Source of the DNA: Trypanosoma brucei
Taxonomy: Eukaryota
Assembly (NCBI GenBank): GCA_000002445.1
Contig: CM000207.1
Location: 1,440,001-1,504,000, forward strand
Direction of reading: 5' to 3'
Length of the DNA stretch: 64,000 nucleotides
Part shown: positions 13,745 through 14,758 of the stretch, one piece after another
Position numbering within the stretch: position 1 is the first letter of the stretch
Layout of the letters: each line of letters opens with the position of its first letter
Translations under genes and position numbers: made by a program
Notes under the pieces: model-generated
Told to the model about the DNA's origin: nothing
Seen by the model: the letters and a program-made list of their open reading frames with translations, nothing else
Database searches by the model: none

Positions 13745-14758
13745 TCATACCTCGTTAGTTGATACCTCACAACTCAACCCCGCACTATCGTCCCTCTCTC
13801 GTAACTCATCCACTGCTTCACTCTTAAAAGCCACCATTACCGGTTGGCTGTCTTCCGTCACTTCACGTGAATTGGCACCACAACATGGCAACCAGCGAAT
13901 AAAAAGTTGCAGCTGCCATGGAGCTCCATCAGCGTTGTGACCTACTGCTATGAATGTTGCAATTGTTAAATAAATAGCTACCAACACGTCATCTGTGTAA
14001 TGGGAGCGAGAGGCAACGATGCAATAGTAGCCAAAAATTGCTACCACAGTCACCACAGGACGAAACGACCAATGTACCATTGCCCCATAAATCCAGTGGA
14101 ACATGAGATGAAGCGTCAGAATCACAGTATGGCCACTGTACATGAGATCACCACAGTGTATGGAACCACCACCAGCTGTAAGAACAGTGAGTATAACGTT
14201 CTTTACGGGGTTCTCTATTTTCGGCGGGTTTTGGCACTTGTCCACTGGCGTCGGCATGGACGTCATAACAATAACCAGCGAGCGAAAGAGTAGCAGGAGT
14301 GCGTATGATGTAATAAAACGGATCCATGCAATGGTATGAACGTTGCGCAGTTCAATACGGCAATTCTCCTTACATAACCACACAGATAAAAAGAAGCGAC
14401 TCACACCGGGAATGTTACATGGGAGTTCTGGTTCACCCGACCCCACACAATGCCGGTGAAGAAGGTACAGTTTCCACAAGGTAAAGAAGCTCAGTGAAGA
14501 GAGGAATGCAATCAGAACGTCCGTAACCACAGAGAGAAATGATATCTTCGTCAAAAGTTCAAAACCGAGATCTGGTAGCGGCTTCGTCACCTTGGGGTCC
14601 GGCATACGTTCATGTGTGATTTGCAACGCAACCGCAAGGATGAAAGAGACGATTACGAATACAACTGTGAATCGAATGACTTGCGTTCGTAATGGCAAGG
14701 GTTTCCTCATTCTGTTCCAAAAGGAACCACTATACATTTCCACTGGTGGGACAGCCAT
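13745..14758 (-). CDS. SLS: sphingolipid synthase, tandem copy D (Val/Ser variant at the two positions recalled as specificity-determining, possibly the IPC-synthase isoform)
   Basis: Same family motifs. Differs from the other three in the TM3 region ([26 protein letters not shown]). Has V instead of D at the position corresponding to residue 172 (codon + strand 14243-14245, cac). Has S instead of F at residue 252 (codon 14003-14005, gga versus gaa in copy A). Numbering is from the MAVPP Met. Unique tail ...[26 protein letters not shown]. Upstream in-frame ATG at 14812 is probably not used. Confidence 0.8.

Follow-up and report, generated by a model that had tools for sequence, protein, structure and literature searches.

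The TbSLS1–4 sphingolipid synthase array of Trypanosoma brucei, and the residues that set its IPC synthase copy apart

The stretch of DNA analysed here (64,000 nucleotides, hereafter the window) contains four tandem, near-identical minus-strand open reading frames, labeled D (13745–14812), C (11451–12422), B (8946–9935) and A (6558–7655). It is almost certain that these form the TbSLS1–4 array of sphingolipid synthases, that copy D, with Val172 and Ser252, is the dedicated IPC synthase TbSLS1, and that the choice of head-group donor is set by lumenal residues beside the catalytic triad. This finding re-describes a characterised gene family and a published signature, and is as such already known; the specificity switch had nonetheless been correctly recognised from the raw sequence in the first-pass annotation. 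The additions made here are modest, and consist of a Val172 that appears to be lineage-specific, of specificity determinants located as small islands in an apparently gene-converted array, and of a T. b. equiperdum assembly that may lack the canonical IPC synthase. According to published reports, T. brucei is the one eukaryote for which synthesis of IPC, SM and EPC alike has been proven; its sphingolipid synthases are essential and have been considered as drug targets. The Ser252/Phe252 signature is used in kinetoplastid genomes at large to predict the specificity of such enzymes (PMC11796370).

Organisation of the array and identity of the four genes

All four copies possess a methionine followed by the residues AVPP (hereafter the MAVPP Met), from which residues are numbered in the literature and in this text. 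In copy D it is located at 14756–14758, within the open reading frame 13745–14812 on the minus strand. The coding sequence from this Met to the stop codon spans 13745–14758 (minus strand, 337 amino acids, Pfam PAP2_C), and the 355-amino-acid form, which extends to 14812, is an exact match to EAN76917.1, XP_827247.1 and UniProt entry Q38E53 (TbSLS1), named phosphatidylinositol:ceramide inositolphosphotransferase. Copy A, which spans 6558–7601 (minus strand) from the MAVPP Met and extends to 7655, matches Q38E56 exactly in its 365-amino-acid form (phosphatidylcholine:ceramide cholinephosphotransferase 4, TbSLS4, an SM/EPC synthase). Copy B (8946–9935, minus strand) is likewise an exact match to Q38E55 (phosphatidylcholine:ceramide cholinephosphotransferase 3, TbSLS3, also an SM/EPC synthase). 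For the 323-amino-acid sequence of copy C (11451–12422, minus strand), no exact entry was found in the protein collection searched. EAN76916.1 corresponds, when compared by eye, to the copy C sequence beginning at Met52, and appears to be a shortened gene model of it. Since the other three copies are taken and Asn170 is present, I assigned copy C to TbSLS2, the EPC synthase.

Comparison with the characterised TbSLS proteins, a check proposed in the first-pass annotation, thus identifies copies D, B and A exactly as TbSLS1, TbSLS3 and TbSLS4. It upholds the annotation's proposal that copy D is the IPC synthase and that copies A–C are EPC/SM synthases: the former is identical to Q38E53, for which both the activity and the Ser252 signature are published, and the latter correspond to TbSLS4, TbSLS3 and the assigned TbSLS2, also with published activities.

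The accessions of copies D, C, B and A belong to chromosome 9 of T. brucei brucei TREU927; the strain assignment of the window rests on these matches of the array proteins. Because of the accession matches, and because Tb927.9.9410 is TbSLS1 in the literature, the window is the reference TbSLS1–4 locus. On the minus strand, transcription runs from SLS1 (D) through SLS2 (C) and SLS3 (B) to SLS4 (A).

Upstream of the MAVPP Met, an 18-codon in-frame extension (beginning MISYPFF) is open in copies D (14759–14812, minus strand) and A (7602–7655, minus strand) only. In copies C and B, a TAA replaces a TAC 14 codons upstream of the Met and closes the extension, so that the MAVPP Met is the common start, and the extension is probably 5' UTR. 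Both Q38E53 and Q38E56 include these 18 residues, and their numbers are accordingly 18 higher; Val172 and Ser252 are residues 190 and 270 in Q38E53.

The 5' and 3' flanks of the copies were aligned separately, with MAFFT. The 5' flanks of SLS2–4 are essentially identical over at least 750 nt, of which SLS1 shares only the last ∼150 nt. On the 3' side, SLS2 and SLS3 are 98–100% identical for ∼500 nt, SLS4 is unique, and the first ∼700 nt following SLS1 (window ∼13045–13744) are unrelated to the other copies. This pattern is consistent with the reported stage-regulated, paralogue-specific expression of the SLS genes, and the unique 3' flank of SLS1 would fit a post-transcriptional control, specific to this paralogue, of an mRNA that is enriched in the procyclic stage.

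Two other open reading frames of the window, both on the minus strand, were also inspected. The larger (19127–22219, 1030 amino acids) combines a CCCH zinc finger at its C terminus (Pfam zf-CCCH, E = 6e-06) with poly-His and poly-Gln tracts of great length. The smaller (16422–17210, 262 amino acids) has tandem GYGGLGM repeats and a hydrophobic C-terminal segment, and gave no match in a Pfam search.

Catalytic centre and specificity residues

The PAP2_C family (PF14360) is found by Pfam in all four copies, with E about 1e-21 (76–78 bits, for a cut-off of 27), and the sole solved relative identified by sequence is the human sphingomyelin synthase-related protein SMSr (8IJQ, E = 6e-14). An AlphaFold model of copy D, generated with 55 sequences, has a pLDDT of 87.5 and a pTM of 0.84. 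It possesses six long helices, at residues 23–51, 75–105, 140–165, 209–228, 232–249 and 255–272, and a short one at residues 184–193. The hydropathy profile recovers five of the six segments, with the region ∼205–225 falling below the threshold. When the PDB was searched with Foldseek, the top match was again SMSr (8ijq_A, E = 7.5e-08, TM 0.53/0.66, probability 1.00), followed by the fungal IPC synthase Aur1, LPP1 and bacterial PAP2 phosphatases.

All four copies have the triad H210, H253 and D257, located in the SGH and HYTxD motifs. It is conserved in the orthologues as well, and the same three residues are named as the TbSLS1 triad in a 2026 structural paper. As located by alignment, codon check and literature, His210 of the SGH motif is encoded in copy D at 14129–14131, and the HYTDD motif at 13988–14002, with His253 at 14000–14002 and Asp257 at 13988–13990 (all minus strand).

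In the first-pass annotation, copy D was described as having Val172 and Ser252 where the three other copies have Asp and Phe, and the codons bear this out. In copy D, codon 172 is GTG (14243–14245, minus strand; CAC on the plus strand) and codon 252 is TCC (14003–14005, minus strand; GGA on the plus strand). Copies A, B and C all have GAT at codon 172 (7086–7088, 9420–9422 and 11907–11909, respectively) and TTC at codon 252 (6846–6848, 9180–9182 and 11667–11669). The Ser/Phe difference is, as had been described, of one nucleotide (gga vs gaa on the plus strand), and the Val/Asp difference is of two (GTG vs GAT). Two further differences were absent from that annotation. Codon 251 differs synonymously, with CGC in copy D and CGG in the other copies, and residue 170, which separates EPC-only from SM/EPC enzymes, is Asn in copy C (11913–11915) and Ala in copies A and B. 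In copy D, this third variable position of loop III is Thr (ACG, 14249–14251, minus strand). In the model, residues 170 and 172 are located in the inter-helix stretch 166–183, corresponding to the hydrophilic, lumenal loop III that follows TM3, and residues 252 and 253 in the inter-helix stretch 250–254 (loop V). Of the four copies, only D has Ser at the signature position, immediately ahead of the second catalytic His.

Copy B was also correctly described as having FSYY in place of FGYY, owing to Ser243 (AGC, 9207–9209; GGC, encoding Gly, in the other copies). This residue was considered as a correlate of specificity and rejected, as Ser243 is the commonest residue in kinetoplastid orthologues. 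Moreover, it is found in both SLS1 and SLS2 of T. b. gambiense, and the same bifunctional SM/EPC activity is reported for TbSLS3, with Ser, and for TbSLS4, with Gly.

What is said here of the enzyme activities, and of what residues 252 and 170 do, is taken from the literature; the residues themselves, the exact identities, the fold and motifs, and the comparative pattern come from the present analysis. Heise et al. (mBio 2024) reported that residue 252, beside the catalytic His, predicts IPC synthesis when Ser (TbSLS1) and SM/EPC synthesis when Phe (TbSLS2–4), and confirmed this predictive value by site-directed mutagenesis in TbSLS1 and TbSLS3 (PMC11796370). The role given to residue 252 in the first-pass annotation is thus well founded. 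Transfer of phosphoinositol from PI to ceramide by TbSLS1 has been reported using cell-free synthesis and in vivo complementation, TbSLS2 is described as EPC-only and TbSLS3/4 as bifunctional SM/EPC, and the loop III residue 170 (Asn in TbSLS2, Ala in TbSLS4) modulates EPC versus SM/EPC synthesis (PMC11796370). The combinations found here, Ala170/Phe252 in copies A and B and Asn170/Phe252 in copy C, fit this rule.

Taken together, this would make each SLS protein a six-helix Golgi membrane enzyme of the PAP2/lipid-phosphate-phosphatase superfamily, in which the His210-His253-Asp257 triad, on the lumenal face, would move the phospho-head group of a glycerophospholipid onto ceramide. The donor accepted would depend on a few lumenal residues beside this triad. 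At position 252, immediately before His253, Ser would favor phosphatidylinositol and hence IPC, and Phe would favor phosphatidylcholine or phosphatidylethanolamine and hence SM/EPC. In loop III of the T. brucei paralogues, the IPC enzyme has Thr170-Pro-Val172-Asp-Lys, the SM/EPC enzymes have Ala170-Pro-Asp172-Asp-Leu, and the EPC-only enzyme has Asn170. The product of TbSLS1, IPC, is characteristic of the insect (procyclic) stage.

Nucleotide mosaic of the paralogues and the T. b. equiperdum array

Over codons 1–313 (939 nucleotides), 57 differences separate SLS1 from SLS4, and these are confined to a few patches, namely nt 214–285, nt 481–529 with nt 570, nt 753 and 755, and nt 898 and 909. 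Between the patches lie stretches of 213, 195, 182 and 142 nt without a single difference; when the differences were placed at random 10,000 times, the longest run never reached the length observed (permutation P < 1e-4). Synonymous divergence is high inside the patches, and the dS between SLS1 and SLS2 is 0.27 over the whole region.

The largest patch, and the biggest difference between TbSLS1 and the other paralogues, is a hyper-divergent cassette in TM2 (codons 72–95, nt 214–285; 14474–14545, minus strand), where TbSLS1 and TbSLS3/4 disagree at 36 of 72 nucleotides and match exactly on either side. It accounts for 36 of the 57 SLS1/SLS4 differences. Ceramide binding, oligomerisation and stability are possibilities for its function. 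The SLS2 cassette is a partly distinct, third version. The loop III patch (nt 481–529, codons 161–177; 14230–14278, minus strand), delimited by nucleotide comparison, holds residues 170, 172 and 174. Codons 251/252 form an island of only two nucleotides (nt 753/755) within an otherwise identical tract of 326 nt, with 182 and 142 identical nucleotides on its two sides.

Concerted evolution by gene conversion is expected to leave just such a mosaic, with old cassettes that would have been retained by selection. The persistence of a 2-nt island at codons 251/252 in an identical tract suggests selection, which may prevent the very small specificity islands from being merged while the remainder of the array is homogenised by gene conversion.

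The T. b. equiperdum assembly GCA_003543875.1 has a six-gene SLS array (CM010680.1; L002:10001-11014, L002:12347-20757 and L001:10001-11044), with a gene at the SLS1 position, four SLS2-type copies, of which two are frameshifted, and SLS4. None of these six SLS genes has the Val172/Ser252 combination. At informative sites, the gene at the SLS1 position is SLS1-type at nt 108–285 and 903–939 but SLS2-type at nt 473–755, resulting in Asn170/Asp172/Phe252. Of the SLS2-type copies, the one mapped (L002:14815) departs from the SLS2 type only at nt 753/755, where it has the SLS1 island and hence Ser252; the other SLS2-type open reading frames have the same protein sequence through the Ser252 region. 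In these SLS2-type copies, Ser252 is therefore found on an Asn170/Asp172 background.

T. equiperdum does not have a tsetse stage, and for this reason a loss of the canonical procyclic IPC synthase would be plausible in this organism. The frameshifts, however, indicate long-read consensus errors, and the pattern may stem from genuine gene conversion or else from the long-read assembly itself. In the accessible literature, no mention was found of an SLS mosaic or of a missing IPC synthase in T. b. equiperdum.

T. b. gambiense DAL972 has eight consecutive SLS gene models (CBH14454–CBH14461), one of them a fragment, compared to the four genes of the window; the number of copies in the array varies from one subspecies, or one assembly, to another. 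Among the DAL972 copies, Ser243 and Gly243 are also distributed differently.

Residue 172 among orthologues, alternative readings and related enzymes

The four copies were aligned with T. brucei-group relatives and with 49 other kinetoplastid orthologues, and the key positions were tabulated. Ser252 is found in 46 of the 49 non-brucei orthologues, the three others being a T. congolense paralogue (Phe), T. vivax (Tyr) and a sequence truncated before residue 252. This agrees with the published rule, in which the IPC synthases of L. major and T. cruzi have Ser at the equivalent position, the single SLS genes of T. cruzi and Leishmania are reported to be IPC synthases, and T. vivax, with Tyr, has an SM/EPC synthase (PMC11796370). 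The equivalent Ser244 of the T. cruzi IPCS is also described as the selectivity residue in a T. cruzi paper.

Residue 172 behaves differently. Among the 46 non-brucei sequences with Ser252, it is Asp in 42, Asn in four and Val in none, and the Asp172/Ser252 enzymes include those of T. cruzi and Leishmania, reported as IPC synthases. Val172, in the context Pro-Thr-Pro-Val-Asp-Lys-Cys, was found only in TbSLS1 (of TREU927 and of T. b. gambiense, where SLS1 is also Val172/Ser252) and in a partial T. congolense paralogue. The latter (P0011, from T. congolense IL3000) is truncated before residue 252, and its loop III is as in TbSLS1, where other kinetoplastids have Pro-Ala-Thr-Asp-Asn-His-Cys. The alignment points to this last sequence as the ancestral loop III. 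Because Val172 is confined to TbSLS1 and P0011, and Asp is found in 42 of the 46 Ser252 orthologues, Asp172 would be the ancestral state, kept by TbSLS2–4, and Val172 a derived one. Asp172 is therefore compatible with IPC synthesis in other species, and is not the sign of a non-IPC enzyme. In T. brucei itself, residue 172 may well help to determine specificity; alone, it cannot be a general switch, and it is no general marker of IPC synthesis. The sharing of Val172 with P0011 hints that the IPC-type paralogue is older than the brucei/congolense split, and did not arise by independent amplification.

Val172 thus seems best regarded as a lineage-specific adjustment, the effect of residue 172 depending on its context. 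All T. brucei paralogues have Asp173, for an ancestral Asn. In TbSLS2–4, Asp172 and Asp173 would form a di-acidic pair, which may favor cationic head groups, and in TbSLS1 the combination of Val172 and Lys174 would remove that charge from loop III. The T. vivax sequence (Asp-Met-Gly, Tyr252) argues against a simple charge rule. I tentatively propose a broader reading, in which T. brucei and T. congolense share Val172 as a derived state, as opposed to an ancestral determinant of IPC synthesis, and the specificity determinants (codons 170–174 and 251–252) are tiny movable islands shuffled among paralogues by gene conversion, with the canonical IPC synthase apparently removed in the tsetse-independent T. 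b. equiperdum.

Different readings of the same residues have to be weighed against the assignment of copy D as an IPC synthase with lumenal specificity residues. The perfect co-variation of residues 172 and 252 in the four T. brucei paralogues, and their identity in T. b. gambiense SLS1, could suggest a universal two-residue code, with Asp172 marking a non-IPC enzyme in any species. The likelihood of this is negligible, as it is already contradicted by the Asp172/Ser252 enzymes of T. cruzi and Leishmania, reported as IPC synthases, and by the absence of Val172 from the 46 non-brucei Ser252 orthologues. There is also a very slim chance that the differences at 172 and 252 are neutral drift between paralogues, with specificity residing elsewhere, for instance in the TM2 cassette, which carries most of the SLS1/SLS4 nucleotide differences. 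Residue 252, however, abuts the catalytic His253, its predictive value was confirmed by mutagenesis in TbSLS1 and TbSLS3 (PMC11796370), orthologues presumed to make IPC almost always have Ser252, and the 2-nt island kept inside the identical 326-nt tract suggests selection.

More credible, while still the less probable option, is that Ser252 by itself switches between IPC and SM/EPC synthesis, and that Val172, which would contribute little to specificity, only modulates or compensates in the T. brucei/T. congolense lineage. The apparently ancestral Asp172 of Ser252 enzymes, and the restriction of Val172 to TbSLS1 and the T. congolense paralogue, are in line with this. Against it, Goren et al. 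(2011) reportedly used V172D/S252F and D172V/F252S double mutants, residue 172 being the third residue concerned, and are said to have needed the double change for full interconversion. A citing paper summarises Goren et al. 2011 as finding that three active-site residues determine selectivity. In favor of Ser252 acting by itself, Heise et al. call residue 252 a single signature residue predicting specificity across kinetoplastids (PMC11796370). No mention of a role for residue 172 was found in the accessible full texts searched, a set to which the primary mutagenesis paper does not belong, and two reviews citing the TbSLS work contain no detail on individual residues.

The closest known system to copy D is TbSLS1 itself (Tb927.9.9410, Q38E53), to which it is identical over all 355 residues; both are the first gene of a four-gene array, both have Val172/Ser252 and H210/H253/D257, and only the numbering differs, by the 18 upstream residues. 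TbSLS2–4 share 85–90% protein identity with TbSLS1, including long nucleotide-identical stretches, but have Phe252, Asp172 and either Asn170 (SLS2) or Ala170 (SLS3/4), and their products are EPC or SM/EPC, not IPC. The single-copy IPC synthases of T. cruzi (TcIPCS), Leishmania and relatives share with TbSLS1 the PAP2_C domain, the triad, and the Ser before the second catalytic His. They are 40–55% identical to TbSLS1, and differ by their loop III (Pro-Ala-Thr-Asp-Asn-His), with Asp172.

Outside kinetoplastids, the mammalian SMS1, SMS2 and SMSr (8IJQ) have the same fold and H-H-D motifs as TbSLS1, but about 22% identity, a Glu before the second catalytic His in SMSr, and no IPC synthase activity. 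In this family, too, the residue adjacent to the catalytic His of the last exoplasmic loop reportedly tunes SM versus CPE selectivity (Kol et al. 2017). The fungal IPC synthase Aur1 (9IVC, 9VJ4) catalyses the same reaction as TbSLS1 with a conserved H-H-D centre, but the two share 11–14% identity and a weak fold match (TM about 0.28), and Aur1 has a different ceramide pocket and needs the Kei1 subunit.
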